IMG/VR virus record: IMGVR_UViG_3300043618_000014 | Coordinates: 1-59,599 of that record | DNA: 59,599 nucleotides | Direction: 5' to 3' (one strand) | Origin: a virus | Taxonomy: Duplodnaviria > Caudoviricetes | In this document: piece after piece, positions 5,811 to 24,351 of the stretch | Numbering within the stretch: the stretch's first letter is position 1 | How the letters are laid out: every line of letters begins with the position of its first letter | The notes under the pieces: generated by a model | Databases searched by the model: none | What the model was told of the DNA's origin: nothing | Seen by the model: the letters and a program-made list of their open reading frames with translations, nothing else | Made by a program: the position numbers and the translations under genes

Positions 5811-7364
5811 CTATACCCAGGGACCCTTGACCACGTTGCTCTCGGGAGAGAGTGCCTTGAAGCGTCCCGCGCCGTCACTCTCGATGCGCCGCGCCTTGCG
5901 CATGCGCGCCAGTACGGCACGTGTGACCGCCGGGTTGGGCATGTCGGCCGCGCGGGTCAGACCGTCGACACGCCACCACGCGCCGTCGCTCAGGACCGCC
6001 GTCAACCGCTCCTCCTGCGTCCCCTTGGACACCCCCTCGATCAGGTCGTCGGCAGCCTTCCTGGGGCCGGGGATCGTGACGGAGGACGCCGTGCCCACGA
6101 CGCTCGCGCAGCGCCGTACGGCGTCGGCGAACAGCGGCATGGACATCTCGGGAACGCGGCGCATGACCGGGGCGCGGTCGCGGGGCGAGCGGACCAGGAC
6201 GTGGCCGTGCATGGGCAGCCTCGTGCCGTCCCATCCCTCGCCCACCGATCCGACCCCGAACAGCTTGTCGGACTCCGCTCGGGTGTTGACGTGGGCGCAC
6301 ACGGTGGTGGAGAACTGAGATCTCAATCCCCCACCCGTGGCGCTGCGGGCGGTCTTGAAGAGGTCCGCTCCCACGCTCTGCGTCCCCATGATCAAGGTCT
6401 GCCCGAGCGATCGGGACTTGCGCGCGACCTCGTCGATGGCGTCCATCATCGGGGTGCCCGCAAGGTCGGTGAACTCGTCGACGACGATCACGTCCCACGG
6501 CTCCTCCTCCGTCGCCTCCCACACCTTGGCGGGCTCGTCGATCTCGCCTCGTACGAAAGCCTGCGCCCGCTCCGCGACCAGGTCACCGCGCCTGCGCATG
6601 GTCTTCACGCATCCCTCAAGTGCGGCGAGTCCCTCCTTGTCGGCCCGGTGGACGGTCACCCGCGACCCCCGCAGACACCCGAGCAGACGATCTCCCTTGG
6701 GGTCGATGACGAGGATCCGCAGGTGGGCGCGGGGAAGCAGGTCGGCGATGGCGTCCGCCATGATCACCGACTTGCCCGCGTCGGTGCATCCCGCGATGAG
6801 GATGTGACCGCCTTCCAGCGGCACGACCACCCCGCCTCCCAGGTCGATGGGGTCGTGGGTAGCGGGCACCGTGACGCGCGGCTCCCACTTCGTGGCCGGG
6901 ATCACGTCCCACTTCGACGACGACTCATCGTCGGCGTCCGCCACCACGTCCACCCGCTTCTCGACACCCTGCAACTTCGCGAGGTTCAGGGCGGTCTTGC
7001 TCTTCTCCGTGGCCACCTTGGCCTTGACCAGGGGGTCACCTTCCCGGGTCCACCGTGCGGTGAAGCAGGCGAGAGCGACCAGCCCGGTGGCGGTCATGCC
7101 GCCCACGGTGTTGACTACGCCGGGCCCGGTGGCCAGGGTCCACGTGGCCCACGCCCCGGCCAACGACCACGTGGTGCCCGCGACGATCGCGGGCGCGGCG
7201 TAGCGGCGGTCGTAGGCCACGACCGCGCCGCAGCCGATCACCCCGACTGCTGCGGTCACGGTGCCCGCTCCCACGGCCAAGTCGTGCGCGTACGGCGTCG
7301 CGGCCATGATCTCCGTGACCGCGAACACGGAGCCCGCGATGACCGTGGGCTTGTCGACGGTCAT
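5811..7364 (-). CDS. traB: FtsK/SpoIIIE-family DNA translocase, TraB-like
   Basis: N-terminal TM helices; Walker A AGCTDAGKS, Walker B IVVDE, MGTQ motif; C-terminal wHTH-like segment; ATGA overlap with upstream gene. Confidence 0.85.
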   Translation of the reverse strand: MTVDKPTVIAGSVFAVTEIMAATPYAHDLAVGAGTVTAAVGVIGCGAVVAYDRRYAAPAIVAGTTWSLAGAWATWTLATGPGVVNTVGGMTATGLVALACFTARWTREGDPLVKAKVATEKSKTALNLAKLQGVEKRVDVVADADDESSSKWDVIPATKWEPRVTVPATHDPIDLGGGVVVPLEGGHILIAGCTDAGKSVIMADAIADLLPRAHLRILVIDPKGDRLLGCLRGSRVTVHRADKEGLAALEGCVKTMRRRGDLVAERAQAFVRGEIDEPAKVWEATEEEPWDVIVVDEFTDLAGTPMMDAIDEVARKSRSLGQTLIMGTQSVGADLFKTARSATGGGLRSQFSTTVCAHVNTRAESDKLFGVGSVGEGWDGTRLPMHGHVLVRSPRDRAPVMRRVPEMSMPLFADAVRRCASVVGTASSVTIPGPRKAADDLIEGVSKGTQEERLTAVLSDGAWWRVDGLTRAADMPNPAVTRAVLARMRKARRIESDGAGRFKALSPESNVVKGPWV

Positions 7365-11103: not shown

Positions 11104-11661
11104 CTACGCAAAGGGGTTGTCGTCGTCCTTGACGGTCGCGGCGCCCACGAACGCCGAGTCGCTAGGACCGGTCTCCTCGAACTGTGCGGAGGTCTTGTAC
11201 AAGATCTCCCACCCGCGCGCCTTGTTTTCCCCACCGCGCGGGGCGACGTCGTTCGTACGGGTGACACGCCACCAGTCCCCGATGCGCGGCTTGTCGGTGC
11301 CGGCGCCACGCCACGCGGCTGCGAACTTGGCCTTGATCTGATACTTGTTCAACCAGATTTCACGGCGACCGTCGTCCTCGTCGTCCTCGTGAACGTCGGT
11401 CTGGAACACGACGTGCAGCGCCATGACGCGGTCCTGGTCCGTGTCGTCCGGGTTGGTCGGGTACGGCATGGGGGTCTTGTCGTGCCACCACAGAAGCTTG
11501 CCCTTGCCCGGGTTCTTCATGTCGTACTTGCGTTCCTGCACCCACTTGGCGTCGGTGATCCGACCGTGCCACGTGTTCCCGATCTCGCCAAAGTCCGCGA
11601 TCTTGACGAAGTCCGTGTCCACCAACGCGTCGAACGCGTCCTGCCCGCTGCCGCTACCCAT
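11104..11661 (-). CDS. Putative single-stranded DNA-binding protein
   Basis: Beta-rich body, acidic tail DDDNPFA, replication context. Confidence 0.65.
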   Translation of the reverse strand: MGSGSGQDAFDALVDTDFVKIADFGEIGNTWHGRITDAKWVQERKYDMKNPGKGKLLWWHDKTPMPYPTNPDDTDQDRVMALHVVFQTDVHEDDEDDGRREIWLNKYQIKAKFAAAWRGAGTDKPRIGDWWRVTRTNDVAPRGGENKARGWEILYKTSAQFEETGPSDSAFVGAATVKDDDNPFA

Positions 11662-11802
11662 GTCTGCCTCGTCTACTCGGTTCCCATGTCTGATGTGAAG
11701 CCCCACGCGTCACGGCGTACCGCGTGAGTCGTGCTCGATCTTGTGCCCCACGGGGTAGACCCGGATCCCTGGTCGAATGCCCGTGCGGTTGCCGACGATC
11801 GG

Positions 11803-11923
11803 TGGACACCCGTGGATTCGAACCACGGTCCGTGGTGGGAGACGAGGTCATCAAACCGCTCCCGTTGCCCGCCGAAGCGGGGTCCGCGCCACGTGTACCG
11901 GTCGCGACCGAAGCCGCGTGTCC
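11803..11923 (-). ncRNA. tRNA-like module G (acceptor + T arm enclosing UUCG hairpins)
   Basis: GGACAC...GGAC-CGTGG-TTCGAAT-CCACG-G-GTGTCC-A. Confidence 0.65.
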
Positions 11924-12099
11924 TAGGTGGCCCCTGCCCCACCAAAGAAGGCAGGGACCGTGATCCGTTGTGGTGCTCTTCGGACGTGGATCAAGCGCTC
12001 GCACTCTCCCGACACAGGCAGGTCCGCCTGAGTTGAGTGCTGTCCGGGGCCTATCATCTGCGAGCTTCGTACGTGCTCGCATCTCGTGTCGCGGTCCCG

Positions 12100-12174
12100 T
12101 GGACGATGAAGGATTCGAACCTTCGTCTCGCAGCCGATCAACGGTGCGCGGGTTGGCCACAACCCCAATCGTCC
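12100..12174 (-). ncRNA. tRNA-like module F (extended anticodon arm, 5-nt loop TTGAT)
   Basis: GGACGAT/ATCGTCC 7 bp; GGGTTG/CAACCC D arm; GAAGG-TTCGAAT-CCTTC. Confidence 0.8.
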
Positions 12175-12327
12175 GAGCCGCTCCGGTAGGTCGGGCTGCC
12201 ACCTTCACACCCGAAGCGGTCGTTCACCCCGGACCCTGGCAGGGGTCCTTGTGGATGAGCTTGACACGCTCCGGATTTCCGCCCGGCCGCGTGCCCGTGC
12301 TGCCAAAGGTTCTGAGCCTTTGCAACG

Positions 12328-12398
12328 TGGTAGGCGAGGATTCGAACCTCAGTCTCCCGGTATACAACCCGGTGCTCTGCCCATTGAGCTAACCCACC
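12328..12398 (-). tRNA. Non-canonical tRNA/pseudo-tRNA module E (GTA in an 8-nt loop)
   Basis: GGTGGGT-TA-GCTC-AATGGGCA-GAGC-A-CCGG-GTTGTATA-CCGG-GAGACT-GAGG-TTCGAAT-CCTC-GCCTACC-A. Confidence 0.7.
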
Positions 12399-12487
12399 CT
12401 TGTGCCACAACGTCCCGAAGGACTTCGACCCCCACCGTGTACACGTACACGTCTCGACTCGGGTACTGGTCATGTGACCGACCTTTG

Positions 12488-12550
12488 TGGTGTGCGGGGA
12501 CTCGAACCCCGTCACCTCCAGGTAAGGGAGGCATCCGCCCGGAACACACC
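12488..12550 (-). tRNA. Miniature tRNA-like module D (TAC anticodon, Val-like; shrunken D arm)
   Basis: GGTGTG/CACACC; CCTCC-CTTACCT-GGAGG; CGGGG-TTCGAGT-CCCCG; 63 nt. Confidence 0.65.
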
Positions 12551-12599
12551 CAACCGGCGATCAACCGGCCTTCAGATCCCCGATGGCCATCGGGGTTCG

Positions 12600-12676
12600 C
12601 GGTTCGATGAAGGACTTGCACCCTCTCGCACGGGTGCGTCCCGTGCTTCCCTTGGCGGGCACGTCTGCCCCGAACC
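12600..12676 (-). ncRNA. Divergent tRNA-like module C
   Basis: GGTTCG/CGAACC closing stem; GCACGGG/CCCGTGC arm; GAGGG-TGCAAGT-CCTTC T-like arm. Confidence 0.55.
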
Positions 12677-12835
12677 TCCCCTGCCCCGGTGATGTGCCGG
12701 GCGGGGACTACCGCCGACGCCGGCGGAAGATCATATCTTTGTCAACTGCACGGGGTACCAATCCTCCCGCTCCCCTGTCCGCTAATATCTCCCGCCGTAC
12801 GTGAGCCGAAGACTCACTGGCGCAGGGCCCTTACG

Positions 12836-12906
12836 TGCGTCCGGTGGGATTCGAACCCACAACGACCACTGTGCGTCGTGGCGCTCTGCCGTTGAGCTAC
12901 GGACGC
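12836..12906 (-). tRNA. Non-canonical tRNA/pseudo-tRNA module B (GCA in an 8-nt loop)
   Basis: GCGTCCG-TA-GCTC-AACGGCA-GAGC-G-CCAC-GACGCACA-GTGG-TCGTT-GTGGG-TTCGAAT-CCCAC-CGGACGC-A. Confidence 0.75.
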
Positions 12907-13052
12907 GGCCCGCTGGTCTGTTGCCGGGCCCTTTCCCAGACGATGTGTCGGCGGGACCAATCGCCCCATCGTCCTTGTGCATGCGCGTCGTCTACCAACC
13001 AACCTGTGGTAGCCGCCGCGCCCCGTGTCCTGGTTGGGAGGGACACGGGCAG

Positions 13053-13121
13053 TGGATCCCCACGAATCGAACGAGGTCACCGACGCCGCGCGAACACGTC
13101 GGCCAGCGAACCTGCGGATCC
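13053..13121 (-). ncRNA. tRNA-like module A
   Basis: GGATCC/GGATCC; CAG/CTG mini D arm; CCGACG/CGTCGG; CCTCG-TTCGATT-CGTGG. Confidence 0.65.
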
Positions 13122-13178
13122 TTGCGCGAGTGACGCCCGATCTCCCAAACGCCCGCCACCCGCTTGCTTACGAGGGAA

Positions 13179-13207
13179 ACATTACCCTGTCACGACAGCG
13201 GTGTCAA
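13179..13207 (-). promoter_or_regulatory. Promoter of the ncRNA array
   Basis: TTGACA-17-TAATGT; -35 overlaps nuclease stop codon; spacer contains TGTCACGACA. Confidence 0.75.
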
Positions 13208-14505
13208 CCGCCGTCCGAGAGTCGTGCCGCGACCTCGGAGGCGAGGGTGATCATCTCGTCGTCGATCATGTCCAGGGCCGCCAGGATGGCCCACACGGTG
13301 GCCGCTGCCTCTCGGGACGTCGCGCCTTCCAGGAGCCTTCCCCAGTGCTCACGGGTAATGTCGTACGGCAGGTCGGTGGACGCGGTGTACCCGCTCAGAG
13401 GGTGCTTCTCCCGACGCTCCGCGCGGATGCGGGCGCAGCGGTCCAGGTGCGTACGTCCCAACGAGAGGTCGGCCTCGTACAGGGTGCACTGCCCCTTGCC
13501 GACTGGAAGGTGGACGATCAAGGCGAGATCACGATCGACGACGAAGTCGGGCCGTGTCCACGTGCCCGGGTACCTACCGTCCTCGTCCTTGCGGTCGTAC
13601 ACGCCGTTCTCCCGGACACCATCCTGATAGACGGCGAACTGTCCGTACATCTCAACGGGGTCGTACCCGACCTTCCCCGTCTTCAGGTCGCCGATCACGT
13701 ACCTTCCGTCGTGCAGGCGGTAGATCCGGTCGAACGTCCCGCCGACGCCACCCCACCCGCTGGTCATGGTCGTGCGCTCCACCATGTCCGGGACGACGGA
13801 CACGCCGCTTCGATAGAGGGTGGCCACGTACGCCGCGACGTCTCGGCGGTGCGCCTTGGGAACAGCGGCCAGAGCACCGGGCGTCTGTGTGTCGACGGCC
13901 TCACAGAAGGCGTGGACGGCGGTCCCCAGGTTGGCACTGGTCTTGCTCCCGCCAGCCTCTTCCGCCTCCTTCACCAGAGCCTTGAGCTTGGCCTTGTCCC
14001 GGTGGTCGGACTCGTTGAGGGAGGACGCCAGAACCGAGAGGTCGGGACGGACGGCGGCGCCCAGGAGTACACGCGCCTGCTTCCACATGTTCAGGTTGTA
14101 CGTGTCCGCGAGTGCCTTGATCACGGTCGACGCGCGCGAGACCGTGACGCGCTTGCCGTTCGGGGCTACCAGGGTGTACCGGTCGTACTTGTCGTCGTGC
14201 AACCCGGGCGCCTTGACGGCGCGCTTCGCGGGCGCGTCACCCAAGCCGGCCACGTAGCTGTCGAACGCGTCGGCGACCACCGCGTCACGCGCGGCCAACG
14301 AGTCGGTACCGGTCGTCTCGGCGTCCGTCGCGCGGCGTGCTGCGTTGGACAAGAGTGCTTCCGCGTGGTCGAACGCCGTACCGCGTGGGTTGTCGTCACC
14401 CTCGCAGCACGTCCACTCGCCGTCGTCGTTGCACTCGATCACGGTGACGCCACCGATGATGTCGCCCTTGCACGCGGGGCACCTACCGTCGTACTTCGCT
14501 TCCAT
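13204..14505 (-). CDS. PD-(D/E)xK exonuclease (RecE/Cas4-like) with N-terminal Cys motif
   Basis: GTAVH..E, GGTFDRI, IGDLKTG, QFAVY motifs. Confidence 0.85.
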   Translation of the reverse strand: MEAKYDGRCPACKGDIIGGVTVIECNDDGEWTCCEGDDNPRGTAFDHAEALLSNAARRATDAETTGTDSLAARDAVVADAFDSYVAGLGDAPAKRAVKAPGLHDDKYDRYTLVAPNGKRVTVSRASTVIKALADTYNLNMWKQARVLLGAAVRPDLSVLASSLNESDHRDKAKLKALVKEAEEAGGSKTSANLGTAVHAFCEAVDTQTPGALAAVPKAHRRDVAAYVATLYRSGVSVVPDMVERTTMTSGWGGVGGTFDRIYRLHDGRYVIGDLKTGKVGYDPVEMYGQFAVYQDGVRENGVYDRKDEDGRYPGTWTRPDFVVDRDLALIVHLPVGKGQCTLYEADLSLGRTHLDRCARIRAERREKHPLSGYTASTDLPYDITREHWGRLLEGATSREAAATVWAILAALDMIDDEMITLASEVAARLSDGG

Positions 14506-14550
14506 GTCACGTCCCTGTCTCGATCACCTTGTCAGTGTCATGACAGTATA

Positions 14551-14579
14551 CAGCCCCTCACCGACACGGTGAGGGGCTG
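14551..14579. terminator. Hairpin terminator
   Basis: CAGCCCCTCACCG-ACA-CGGTGAGGGGCTG. Confidence 0.7.
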
Positions 14580-14590
14580 CGGGTGAGGGG

Positions 14591-20200: not shown

Positions 20201-21691
20201 CGGTACATCAACGACGAACGCGACTTCCTCGCCGCGTGCGGCGGGATGACGCTGCGGGGTGTGGCGGTCGACATTCCGTTGGTGACGGAGCGAGCGGCGG
20301 CCGAGGAGCAGCAGAAGCGGGACGCGCTGCGGGAGTTGCACGAGAGTGCCGGCCTTCCGCTGGAGAAGGTGACCGAGAAGGTCAAGATCACTCGCAAGGG
20401 GAAGGGCACTGTCGTAGGTCGAGTCGCCGAACGTGAGGCCGTGTTGTCCGGGGCGACGTCGTTCGTCTGCGGTACCACGGTGATTCACGGCGAGGGGTGC
20501 CCGCGATTGGACAGGGTCACGGAAGGCGGCGCGTGCGCGTGCCCGACCGAGGACGTCGTCCGGGAGATCGACCCGGACGACTACGAGATCAAGCGCACGG
20601 AGGAGCGGGAGACGTACGCGTCGCCCCTGGCAGCCGCGTCCGGGATCGCCTGGTTGGAAGGGGTGTGGAACACCTACCTTCGTGACGGCGTGAACTCGCC
20701 TGTCGTCCCCCGCACGGAGAAGGGTCGACTGTGCACCAAACGGGACGCGCTCCAAGAGGTGATCGACGGGACCGCGACACGTCCGCCCTGCCCGCCCGCT
20801 CTGGCGTCCGTGCTCGACCTGATGAACACGGCCAACGGTGCACGCGTCGTGTACGCCACTGTGCTGAAGAACATGATCGACGGTCGCTACCACCCACGCA
20901 TGTCGTCCGAGCAGGCGTCCGGCCGTGTCTCCTGCGGCGTGACCGTGTTCGGGAAGCACGGTGGGAAGGTTCGCGAACGAGCCGTGTTCGTCGCGGACGA
21001 GGGTGAACTCATGGTCGCGTTCGACTATGACCAGGTCGACGCGCGGGCGGTCGCGGCACACTGCCAGGATCCCCGGTACATGGACCTGTTCGATGGTCAC
21101 GCGGACTTCCACACCGCCAACGCCGTAGCGATCTTCGGGGACGCGAAGTACCGGGAGGTTGCCAAGAAGGCGGGCCACGGTGAGAACTACGGGATGGGGA
21201 TCAACGGATTGGTCAAGCTGATCCTGGGCGCCACGGACATGACGAACACACAGGCGCGTGAGTACGCGAACGCGTACGTCGATGCCATGGAGCAGCTCTA
21301 CCCGGTGCGCAACAAGTGGCGGGCAGCGGTCCGCGAGCGGGCCGACAGGGGCGAACTGCTCGACAACGGGTTCGGTCGGATGATGCGGCCCGAGGTCGGG
21401 CGGGGGTGGACGCAGGGGCCGGCATTGCTCGGTCAGGGAACCACCCGCGACATCATGCGCAAGTCGATCCTCGATCTCCACCCGGACGTGCGCCGCTGCC
21501 TCAAGTTCACGGTGCATGACGAACTGGTGTTCTCCTTCCCGGAACACCTGGTCGACGAGTACTCGAACGACGTCATGCGTGCCATGACGTTCGACTGGTT
21601 CCCCGCCTTCCTCCCGAGCGACTCGCGCCCGGTGCACATCACGTGTGGCCGCAGCAAGGCCGCGCCGTCGTGGGCGGGTTGCTACGCCTGA
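17228..21691 (+). CDS. Primase (TOPRIM/DUF3854-like) - SF3/D5-like helicase - family A DNA polymerase fusion
   Basis: VTEGVKKGD, VFDAD, KGVDD; GHGSNGKST, IEELPEG; FDVES, AHNGLNYD; DYDQVDAR, R...K...HG.NYG, VHDELV; GTG start after GAGG. Confidence 0.93.
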   Translation: MTDSIADSSPTEPDGWDAELSVEHLEALLSGGVTLSTVYERGYVTLLRGDRGHEALLRDERFTVACAESLRRSPGLLIPVYNPVGERVSAHYRPDEPLVGNDGKSRKYLMPFSTGTVLDVHPANTEDVRDTSVPLYVTEGVKKGDALTSRGLCAVSLAGVWNWKRDGAAHPDWESIPVKGRRVVLVFDADATSNDGVTKAQRAFAVWMRDTKRADVRVAILPGVVGDQECKGVDDHFVAGWTLDDLEACLTTDVPEPESTRPAVAVAAEESVRDDMIVAEVADNLMVGRYRYSPGLGWVEWDEPRWTHRANESQILNEIKDHLRAWFDDRASELVTSGQVRGKAGMDAMNTLRRVCAKGKWDMTLAMCSGYPGVATDDEQFDADPDVINTPSGIVSLRTGMQTPGDPDRLMTKLTGCAYVAGATHPDWDAALDALPDDATREWWQLRMGQALTGYVPPDDVMLFVQGHGSNGKSTVLDGVTAAFGDYFTLVSRKLLVGSQSDHPTESMTLFGARLAAIEELPEGRHLNLALLKSHVGTSKITARKMRRDNVTFFATHALMVNTNYAPQVEETDHGTWRRLCMVRFPFTYRKPGEVCDGAYDRVGDGDIRQRIKMDPRVHEAVLAWLVQGAMRWYAAGRVMPPPPTTVDNATRDWRRTSDVLMGYLDERMVVDKDAHVSSTEMLRDVNTYLELRSHRPWSEKLLASRIDGHGLTRHVERRQVRGSTPGTGKLSRPHGANDRMPERYTAYLGLRFRSPGDEDAPGPFDDRDPFTPQPAAPQVDPVDTPPVDGPVLPDCTDTTEGDTVFTSSEMEELSNAFHEPPRVVTFDVESPSVDRLMDWDVASEGPWARLCGYSVDGGKPVTTTDVEELLRVLHAADVIVAHNGLNYDLIGLARHHGADYERLSAKCDDLLVVARQLDPPSAKKGNDRTHYDLDSIGMRMVGAGKHGDLEALKNRFKGYHLIPTDNVEYRRYLVQDVQLLNDLRPLLPTSRYINDERDFLAACGGMTLRGVAVDIPLVTERAAAEEQQKRDALRELHESAGLPLEKVTEKVKITRKGKGTVVGRVAEREAVLSGATSFVCGTTVIHGEGCPRLDRVTEGGACACPTEDVVREIDPDDYEIKRTEERETYASPLAAASGIAWLEGVWNTYLRDGVNSPVVPRTEKGRLCTKRDALQEVIDGTATRPPCPPALASVLDLMNTANGARVVYATVLKNMIDGRYHPRMSSEQASGRVSCGVTVFGKHGGKVRERAVFVADEGELMVAFDYDQVDARAVAAHCQDPRYMDLFDGHADFHTANAVAIFGDAKYREVAKKAGHGENYGMGINGLVKLILGATDMTNTQAREYANAYVDAMEQLYPVRNKWRAAVRERADRGELLDNGFGRMMRPEVGRGWTQGPALLGQGTTRDIMRKSILDLHPDVRRCLKFTVHDELVFSFPEHLVDEYSNDVMRAMTFDWFPAFLPSDSRPVHITCGRSKAAPSWAGCYA
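19575..19642 (+). promoter_or_regulatory. Internal promoter/RBS/in-frame GTG ahead of PolA part
   Basis: TTGACA-18-CAGTCT, CTGTACCGACA leader, GAAGGAGACACC-GTG at 19640 in frame. Confidence 0.6.
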
Positions 21692-24263: not shown

Positions 24264-24351
24264 TCACGGGGCCCACTCTTCGCGGGGTGGGCCCTTTCGC
24301 ACGTGGTACCGTTGTCATGACAGAGTCACCGGGATAGAGAGGGATGTCGCG

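Follow-up and report, generated by a model that had tools for sequence, protein, structure and literature searches.

A non-coding array between two genes of a complete phage genome

The virus record IMGVR_UViG_3300043618_000014, which at its full length we refer to as the window, is a complete genome of 59,599 bp with direct terminal repeats and a GC content of about 65%. Between two of its genes lies a stretch of DNA in which seven tRNA-like modules (M1 to M7) alternate with spacers (S1 to S7) behind a promoter-like site and a leader (S0), and it is this array that we describe here. Protein-guided searches recovered two further complete genomes of uncultured phages that carry the array, L004 and L007, both with direct terminal repeats and with nuclease proteins that are 75% and 42% identical to that of the window, respectively. 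Each has the array between the same pair of genes as the window, and all tRNA matches of the genome fall within it. In the window, the upstream gene encodes a PD-(D/E)XK exonuclease (13204-14505, minus strand; Pfam PF12705; phrog_466) and the downstream gene (11104-11661, minus strand) encodes a 185-aa protein whose probable start is the ATG at 11661, the most likely start because gacgaggcagacATG is kept in L004. The gap between them runs from 13203 to 11662, about 1.54 kb on the same minus strand as both flanking genes. A first-pass annotation of this DNA had described 1.45 kb free of coding sequence; the absence of a coding signal stands, and the true extent is slightly longer. The codon-phase GC difference, which is 0.30-0.62 in both flanking genes, is 0.02-0.32 between about 11725 and 13175, and of the 105 open reading frames (ORFs) that pass the thresholds of GC3 of at least 0.80 and GC2 below 0.62 (GC content at third and second codon positions), none is situated within 11707-13203. 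The elements of the array, in the order in which they would be transcribed, are as follows.

13179-13207, minus strand: promoter-like site, with TTGACA at 13207-13202, a 17-nt spacer and TAATGT at 13184-13179
13122-13175, minus strand: leader S0, a 10-bp hairpin in the minimum free energy (MFE) fold
13053-13121, minus strand: M1, tRNA-like, with a palindromic 6-bp acceptor GGAUCC/GGAUCC, T loop UUCGAUU and A73-C74; a single long central hairpin takes the place of the D and anticodon arms
12907-13052, minus strand: S1, structured spacer with four hairpins, MFE z-score -1.96
12836-12906, minus strand: M2, tRNA body with a 7/5 branch, D arm with GG and A73-C74; anticodon arm of 4 bp with an 8-nt loop (GACGCACA)
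12677-12835, minus strand: S2, variable spacer
12600-12676, minus strand: M3, four-way cloverleaf with acceptor GGUUCG(G)/CGAACC and G73-C74; its arms are GGGCA-GACG-UGCCC, a middle arm of 7 bp with a 5-nt loop, and a T-like arm with loop UGCAAGU
12551-12599, minus strand: S3, two hairpins, z-score -2.14
12488-12550, minus strand: M4, minimal tRNA-like module of 63 nt with a 6/5 branch, 3-bp D arm and A73-C74; anticodon arm with a 5-bp stem and the 7-nt loop CUUACCU (U33, UAC, C37)
12399-12487, minus strand: S4, spacer that is not in L004, z-score +0.26
12328-12398, minus strand: M5, near-standard class-I tRNA with a GUA anticodon, 11-bp branch and A73-C74; it departs from the standard at position 37 (U), in a branch that lacks one pair and in the anticodon stem, which has a G-G mismatch unless drawn as 4 bp with an 8-nt loop
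12175-12327, minus strand: S5, structured spacer with the hairpin GACCCCUGCCAGGGUC in all three genomes
12100-12174, minus strand: M6, tRNA body with a 7/5 branch, standard D arm and A73-C74; anticodon arm of 7 bp with a bulge and the 5-nt loop UUGAU
11924-12099, minus strand: S6, multi-hairpin domain common to all three genomes, with stem UGAUCC/GGAUCA and the motifs GACACGAGA and GCACUCAAC...GAGAGUGC kept in all three
11803-11923, minus strand: M7, 121-nt tRNA-like module with a 6-bp acceptor and 6-bp T stem, then A73-C74-C75; a UUCG-capped hairpin stands at the D position and a variable middle arm of about 60 nt on a CGUG/CACG base
11662-11802, minus strand: S7, spacer with hairpins that reaches the start of the next gene, with no U-tailed terminator

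The sequence TTGACA-17-TAATGT at the head of the array, already pointed out in the first-pass annotation, can be read directly and has both hexamers in place in the two relatives (TTGACT-17-TAATGT in L004 and TTGACT-18-TAGTCT in L007, position kept). Its -35 hexamer contains the stop codon TGA of the nuclease gene, and its spacer holds the palindrome CTGTCGTGACAG, which is also kept in L004 and L007. A scan for the TATAAT consensus did not list this site because TAATGT agrees with TATAAT at only three of six positions; it fits the looser actinobacterial -10 form TANNNT. Palindromes of the form CTGTC(A/G)TGACAG, at one mismatch or fewer, are present at three sites, namely the array promoter spacer (13187-13198), a position just upstream of the nuclease start (14535-14546) and 24312-24323, and may be an operator. 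The palindrome CTGTCRTGACAG is not enriched genome-wide, with 15 matches at two mismatches or fewer and 15.1 expected. At the far end of the array, no U-tailed terminator was found ahead of the downstream gene.

tRNA likeness and decoding capacity of the modules

The feature common to all seven modules is the acceptor/T half of a tRNA. Their 3' ends had been placed at 13053, 12836, 12600, 12488, 12328, 12100 and 11803, and each of these positions is the N73 of an acceptor/T module. All seven begin with G and have an acceptor of 5-7 bp stacked directly on a T stem of 5-6 bp. The resulting branch is 12 bp long in M2, M3, M6 and M7 and 11 bp long in M4 and M5; M1, whose T stem has one U-U mismatch in the window and is perfect in L004 (CCACG/CGUGG), scores 10 bp in the window, compared with 11 bp in L004. 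The T loops read TTCGATT, TTCGAAT (four times), TTCGAGT and TGCAAGT, six of the seven fitting the T-loop pattern UUCRANY, and a standard D arm with GG is found only in M2, M5 and M6. The earlier description of six modules ending in A73-C74, none of which encodes CCA, is right (A73 in six of seven, with G in M3; CCA in 0/7), and C74 is present in all seven; M7 ends in ACC followed by G. Across the three genomes, A73 and C74 occur together in 16 of 19 modules. When the whole 59.6-kb genome was scanned loosely on both strands for 5-bp stems capped by a 7-nt T-type loop and followed by a strand able to pair with a segment upstream, 27 matches were obtained. The 5-bp T stem is fully paired in seven of them, six of which fall at 11822-12855 on the minus strand. 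Unconstrained folding returned the cloverleaf as the MFE structure of M2, M3, M5 and M6, with z-scores of -2.2 to -3.0 (-2.87 for M6), and it did the same for M4, M7 and an extra tRNA of L004 and for M7 of L007.

Comparison with known families separated the modules into two groups. Three of the seven pass the 29-bit threshold of the Rfam tRNA family RF00005 (M2, 53.9 bits; M5, 47.8 bits; M6, 44.6 bits), the remaining four fall short of every family threshold, and in a permissive Rfam search of 11500-13400 no other family reached threshold. ARAGORN names four modules, calling M2 and M6 'tRNA-???' with four-base anticodons, M5 Tyr(gta) and M4 Val(tac), the last in another register. Several specific classes were considered and rejected. 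The match of M4 to mascRNA/menRNA (RF01684) scores 22.3 bits (E 0.15) against a cut-off of 42.5 bits; ARAGORN detected no transfer-messenger RNA (tmRNA) in the window, and M7 has A3-U70; and no module of the window has the 8/4 or 9/3 branch of allo-tRNAs and (8/4) tRNAs, the branches being 7/5, 6/5 and 6/6. YrlA and other bacterial Y RNAs gave no Rfam match at E<=10, and the phage has no Ro/TROVE gene. Bacterial YrlA RNAs, as Chen et al. are said to have reported in 2014, have a tRNA-like domain, and the array resembles them in being composed of RNAs that would not decode and that copy the acceptor/T/D part of tRNA; it differs in that neither the Rfam match nor the Ro gene is found here. The Y-RNA-like role that had been suggested for the modules thus finds no support, since neither YrlA nor any other Rfam match at E<=10 nor a TROVE/Ro gene was found.

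In a decoding tRNA, the anticodon stem is 5 bp long and carries a 7-nt loop in which position 33 is U and position 37 a purine. None of the seven modules follows this rule in full. M4 departs from it only at position 37, which is C; the loop of M5 counts 7 nt if the G-G mismatch is tolerated but not otherwise, and its position 37 is U; and M1, M3 and M7 have no arm of the 5-bp-stem/7-nt-loop type. G3:U70, the alanine identity element, is absent from all seven. The proposal in the first-pass annotation that the modules are probably not decoding tRNAs is therefore well founded for M1, M2, M3, M6 and M7, judged by their anticodon arms, but less so for M5, with its near-standard GUA arm, and M4, with its 7-nt UAC loop. 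By this measure, at most two of the seven modules could be adaptors.

Could the modules nonetheless decode, with odd loops that resist host anticodon nucleases or read four-base or shifted codons? M5 has a canonical counterpart in L007 (a GUA tRNA scoring 68.9 bits), M4 has the 5-bp stem and 7-nt U33 loop, and L004 has an extra tRNA whose 8-nt loop sits on a 5-bp stem; moreover, the available part of one study proposes that loop changes protect phage tRNAs (PMC10264068). Set against this, no anticodon can be presented by the 5-nt loops of M6 and of M2 in L004 or by the insert of about 60 nt in M7, and M1 lacks an anticodon arm altogether; M4 and M5 have a pyrimidine at position 37, and G3:U70 occurs nowhere. 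Codon use points the same way and shows no particular demand: over 27 genes, TAT accounts for 22 of the 277 Tyr codons and GTA for 66 of the 1118 Val codons. Finally, the sole near-standard tRNA, M5, is the least conserved element and is missing from L004. Taken together, we consider a general decoding function improbable.

The extra tRNA-like gene of L004 (6485-6556 of that genome) deserves description in its own right. It scores 49.4 bits, has a 5-bp anticodon stem and the 8-nt loop CCGACAAA with C33, and is assigned the four-base anticodon gaca by ARAGORN. A 5-bp stem with an 8-nt anticodon loop is the format of +1 frameshift suppressors.

Conservation of the array in two relatives

The flanking genes provide a measure of the divergence between the window and L004. 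The nuclease gene is 79% identical, with 281 of 422 third codon positions shared (67%), and the downstream gene 81% identical, with 132 of 189 shared (70%). Much of the array lies above these values: the block of promoter and leader (13206-13122) matches at 81/85 positions, S1 at 144/146, S3 at 47/49, M6 at 75/75, M4 at 60/63, M1 at 65/69 and the 3' part of S5 at 82/88. One change in leader S0 converts a G-U pair to G-C. Other parts have diverged further, including M3 (57/83 or 69%, computed on 12683-12600), S7 (104/131, computed on 11802-11672) and S2, which is 62% identical over aligned columns with 149 gap columns (computed on 12835-12684); L004 has neither M5 nor S4. The body of M2 is identical (50/50) and its anticodon arm and variable loop have been replaced (8 of 17 aligned positions identical), giving an arm of 5 bp with a 5-nt loop in L004, and M7 matches at 28/30 positions in its T arm and acceptor and at 47/77 in its inner part.

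Where sequences changed, helices were preserved. In a three-genome alignment of M7, 24 pairs were examined and 93.1% of cells pair, compared to 37.9-47.2% when partners are slid. Four of the pairs have changes on both sides, and the hairpin at the D position is GCGGC/GUCGC, GCCGC/GUGGC and GCCCC/GGGGC in the three genomes. In S6, RNAalifold found 36 pairs, seven of them with double changes, including the conversion of UGAUCC/GGAUCA to UGGCCC/GGGCCA in L007; the long-range closure GGGACCG/CGGTCCC is not kept in the relatives, and a shorter GGG.CC/GG.CCC closure is. In the corresponding alignment of M4, one pair has a double change in each of two stems, U-A becoming C-G in the acceptor and G-C becoming C-G in the T stem, and the S5 hairpin GACCC...GGGUC is invariant in all three genomes. 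M3 forms the same four-way junction in the window and in L004, its middle arm rebuilt from different letters that still pair. The first-pass annotation had named a lack of covariation in homologs as grounds for rejecting its reading; this is not what is seen, as the array is syntenic in two relatives and double changes preserve its helices.

L007, the more distant relative, gives a view of which elements are fixed and which move. Its array comprises a module with a UGCAACC loop, a 65-aa ORF, a counterpart of M4 with a long extra arm, the canonical GUA counterpart of M5, an S5-type hairpin, S6 and M7; no recognisable counterpart of S1 was found there. From these comparisons, the modules behave as movable cassettes around the fixed elements S5, S6 and M7. 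L007 also has a 'cgc' module (6800-6871), which ARAGORN names Ala cgc and Rfam scores at 35.3 bits; its acceptor and T stem can be arranged as 8 and 4 bp, the 8/4 layout known from some phage and soil tRNAs, and a long variable arm is lacking. Both relatives have a membrane-protein ORF within the array, at the position of S2 or nearby (L004 5713-5925, 70 aa; L007 6075-6271, 65 aa), whose products have hydrophobic stretches and end in H-(D/E)-D-I. The window has no such ORF, only a short look-alike of its 3' end (gatatga) at about 12735-12745.

These patterns bear on the idea that the modules are dead copies of once-normal phage tRNA genes. Module content does vary, in that L004 has lost M5 and both relatives have gained other tRNAs, and M5 of the window has small defects relative to that of L007 (the G-G mismatch, U37 and the shorter branch). 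However, the conserved blocks lie far above third-codon-position identity, all seven modules, like those of the relatives, have intact acceptor and T stems in which both sides of pairs have changed, and it is the non-standard modules (M1, the M2 body, M4, M6 and M7) that are conserved, with the near-standard M5 being dispensable. Because the odd modules are conserved, their stems intact and the changes such that pairing is preserved, we consider a decaying cluster very improbable.

Searching with a 15-sequence alignment against viral, metagenome and genome contigs returned only L004 and L007 among viral contigs, a contig of L007 again among metagenomes and none among genome contigs. Further searches with the nuclease homologues P0016 and P0013 gave no additional arrays; the nuclease homologues number 46, of which about 10, at 39-70% identity, are on contigs of 5-61 kb. 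A 27-nt core of M7 is identical in the window and L007 and differs by one base in L004, at the R position of the search pattern, and an exact-pattern scan for it found no match in any other IMG/VR contig or in 185,579 species genomes. Exact-pattern scans for the M2 and M6 bodies found only the known relatives. Among cultured phages there is no DNA match to the array, and the Woodruffvirus phages have protein genes rather than the array after the exonuclease; M2 alone resembles assorted phage tRNAs, at 75-77%, and M6 matches through its T arm only. Array DNA turned up in soil metagenome runs only; no RNA run was listed as carrying it, which has no bearing on expression. Among the matches listed, contigs from four soil runs, each of a different study, cover pieces of the array with a likeness of 80% or more. 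A 10.7-kb contig of run X3 has an order like that of L004, with M5 missing and different letters at 12733-12835 and 11834-12001 among the matches listed. In a soil contig of run X6, the M3 T loop (12614-12620) is UUCAAGU, where the window has UGCAAGU and L004 AUCGAUA, and this version is closer to the standard than either of the others.

Could the array instead act as DNA, for example as an origin of replication, as a site of recombination or packaging, or as an attP-like collection of host tRNA ends? Its surroundings are suggestive in this regard, as it lies in a replication/recombination block with a helicase, the exonuclease and the SSB-tailed protein. Yet the tRNA likeness is strand-specific and extends to whole cloverleaves rather than 3' halves, and neither a tyrosine nor a serine integrase was found in the phage genome. 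The M7 core is found in none of the 185,579 species genomes and is therefore not a borrowed host tRNA end or attachment site. We regard a DNA-level element as extremely improbable. Perfect complementarity of array RNA to sequence elsewhere in the genome extends to 16 nt in one case and to 14 nt or less in all others, and we take these matches to be chance. The 16-nt stretch lies at 12100-12085, the junction of M6 and S6, and pairs with 20766-20781 (plus strand), on the strand opposite the mRNA of the primase-helicase-polymerase gene, forming an inverted repeat in DNA; it is probably due to chance.

With respect to the neighbouring genes, the name 'SSB-like' given to the downstream gene in the first-pass annotation has a single basis. 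This is the C-terminal DDDNPFA tail, common to all three genomes, and we take this tail to resemble the acidic tip of SSB; the protein has no Pfam match and no PDB sequence match, its PHROG match is a family of unknown function, and its AlphaFold2 model is poor (predicted local distance difference test, pLDDT, 45). Between the genes for the helicase and the nuclease (14550-14590, minus strand) there is a strong hairpin, GCAGCCCCTCACC...GGTGAGGGGCTG, which is kept in L004 and is terminator-like without a U tail. Among cultured phages, the exonuclease is closest to that of Streptomyces phages (Woodruffvirus), at 32-35% identity, and 391 phage records match it, 187 of them Streptomyces phages and 150 Mycobacterium phages. 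Given this similarity, the host is probably a soil actinobacterium.

Predicted processing of the array and possible roles of its products

Since the array is kept in two related phages, it is very probably a conserved and functional RNA operon. Its anatomy, the absence of coding signal, synteny, conservation and helix-preserving changes are seen in the sequences; how such an operon would be transcribed, cut and tailed with CCA, and what its products would do, we infer. A sigma-70-type promoter on the exonuclease stop codon would drive a single transcript of about 1.5 kb, which probably continues into the downstream gene. The features that the modules retain, namely G1, an acceptor/T stack of 11-12 bp, the T loop, the D-loop GG (in three modules), A73 and C74, are those read by RNase P, by RNase Z or 3' exonucleases and by the CCA-adding enzyme, and therefore the precursor would most likely be cut at each module. 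We consider cutting by tRNA-processing enzymes likely. The phage has no CCA-adding enzyme, RtcB or Ro, and so the host would have to supply the processing enzymes. Host RNase P and RNase Z or 3' exonucleases would then release about fourteen stable small RNAs, a host enzyme would add CCA tails to the tRNA-shaped ones, and the downstream mRNA would be left with a processed 5' end. The five non-decoding modules may occupy host proteins that recognise the tRNA body, for example tRNA-cutting defence enzymes, and M5 (GUA) may supplement tyrosine tRNA. Taken as a whole, the reading of the locus as an operon processed into stable small RNAs that include non-decoding tRNA mimics is the one we favour, at about even odds. 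That the tRNA-shaped products act as mimics or decoys, and are more than cutting signals, we propose tentatively and with somewhat less than even confidence.

Decoy and punctuation roles both fit the anatomy of the modules, and in the main rival reading the modules would serve as cutting signals only, releasing S1, S3, S5 and S6 as the real products and setting the 5' end of the downstream mRNA. The spacers are conserved like the modules (S1 144/146, S3 47/49), and S5 and S6 are kept with double changes in the relative whose nuclease is 42% identical. It is precisely the acceptor/T half that the modules retain; M2 has freely replaced its anticodon arm, modules move, appear and vanish around the fixed S5 and S6 in the three genomes, and no terminator was found before the next gene. 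There is also precedent, in that t-elements set mRNA ends in Arabidopsis mitochondria, according to the available part of PMC1920247. On the other hand, M6 (75/75) and M4 (60/63) are conserved through their odd anticodon arms, and M2, M5 and M6 have full D arms with GG, which is beyond what a cutting signal needs, although uniform low divergence could also explain both of these observations. Seven signals for about six spacers, of which S2 and S4 are poorly conserved or dispensable, would furthermore be an excess for spacer release. On balance, we think a role restricted to punctuation possible and rather unlikely.

Several observations weigh against the reading of the array as an operon of tRNA mimics. 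M1, M3, M4 and M7 give no tRNA match even at E<=10 and reach no Rfam threshold, and the window's M1 and M7 show no stability beyond that of shuffled sequence (z-scores -0.77 and -1.07). The conservation and covariation comparisons rest on three genomes, the window, L004 and L007, and the covariation in M7 is weak, as the observed values were reached by 13 of 500 shuffles with three sequences. The blocks shared with L004 at 94-100% could partly reflect recent phage-phage exchange instead of selection; exchange with the L004 lineage would not, however, explain the conservation of M7, S5, S6 and M4 in L007. Domain searches of the phage genome for Ro/TROVE (PF05731), RtcB and a CCA-adding enzyme found none of them, and hence no gene that suggests a partner; in a control search, PF05731 was found in two of 14 genomes. 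The spacers are conserved as strongly as the modules, which fits spacers as products equally well. Finally, decoys of nucleases that read a specific anticodon loop would be expected to have faithful, host-like 7-nt loops, and these are missing. The non-canonical loops speak against decoys of this kind and not against decoys of factors that read the tRNA body.

A more specific version of the mimic proposal is suggested by the swapping of the M2 anticodon arm on an unchanged body and by the varied hairpins (5 to about 60 nt) of M1, M6 and M7, which together resemble a scaffold-plus-payload design. The modules would be natural tRNA scaffolds in which a near-invariant body provides cutting, CCA addition and stability and a swappable inner arm is the working part. 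The phage would thereby field a fast-evolving panel of baits or aptamers that jam tRNA-directed immunity or other tRNA-binding factors, with the spacers as co-released partner RNAs. This is speculative, and we consider it unlikely in this full form.

Irregular tRNA-like RNAs in phage tRNA loci are a known but poorly understood kind. RNA C and RNA D of phage T4 (species 1 and 2) are stable small RNAs of unknown function encoded among the T4 tRNA genes; they arise from the tRNA precursors through the action of tRNA-processing enzymes, and their acceptor end is tRNA-like. In T4 these two odd RNAs stand beside eight normal tRNAs, whereas in the present array the odd ones make up five to six of seven, alongside one near-standard tRNA. 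The closest printed description of the array appears to be that of 'polycistrons of irregular tRNAs' in forest and peat soil metatranscriptomes by Mukai et al. 2017 (PMC5389517; review PMC7609411), to judge from the available parts of these sources. The tested members were unused in E. coli translation, and a regulatory non-coding role was suggested, according to the part of the paper available (PMC5389517). As described there, they resemble the array in their soil origin, in tandem irregular cloverleaves on one transcript unit (a predicted one in the phage) and in some non-7/5 branches, and they differ in having been assigned to Acidobacteria, in a link to toxin-antitoxin systems and in 8/4 branches, G-1 or an extra loop (PMC5389517). 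The phage array, compared by descriptions, lies in a complete high-GC phage and has 7/5, 6/5 and 6/6 branches and long conserved structured spacers. In the phage DNA, tandem irregular modules stand behind one promoter-like site, from which a single transcript would arise.

Other known systems share single traits with the array. The t-elements (as covered in the available part of PMC1920247) and mascRNA/MALAT1 (RF01684) are acceptor/T mimics without a working anticodon that are cut by RNase P and RNase Z, which fixes the ends of the adjoining RNAs; they are eukaryotic or organellar, whereas such cutting is a prediction for the phage array, and the mascRNA match of M4 is far below cut-off. In Bacillus cereus, the accessible text of PMC3399842 describes tRNA-Other, a pseudo-tRNA with a regulatory role, which is likewise tRNA-shaped, non-translational and functional but is a single chromosomal gene and not a phage array. 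With regard to defence, the T5 tRNA-Tyr counters the PtuAB of retron-Eco7 (PMC11555353), and mycobacteriophage tRNAs have altered anticodon loops, a change predicted to prevent cleavage of the VapC type (PMC10264068), again going by the available parts of these papers. These tRNAs are phage-encoded and promoter-driven, as the array appears to be, and M5, with its GUA anticodon and altered loop, would fit such a role; however, they still decode, which five of the seven array modules cannot. An array of non-decoding tRNA look-alikes in an actinobacterial phage was not found in the literature searched, which covered few subscription journals. What sets the present array apart appears to be that non-decoding modules dominate, that structured spacers are conserved and that inner arms are exchanged in the manner of cassettes.

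The purpose of phage tRNA genes has been debated for decades, and recent work links them to defences that cut tRNAs. The array is kept across phages whose flanking nuclease is merely 42% identical and forms a compact, promoter-containing unit of 1.6 kb suited to the study of processing enzymes, bound proteins and tRNA-targeting defences. If its modules are only cutting signals, the array would be a bacterial-virus counterpart of the tRNA punctuation of mitochondria, one that makes structured small RNAs. If instead the reading as an operon of tRNA mimics is true, an operon in which non-decoding look-alikes outnumber real tRNAs would mean that phages use the shape of tRNA for purposes beyond translation.

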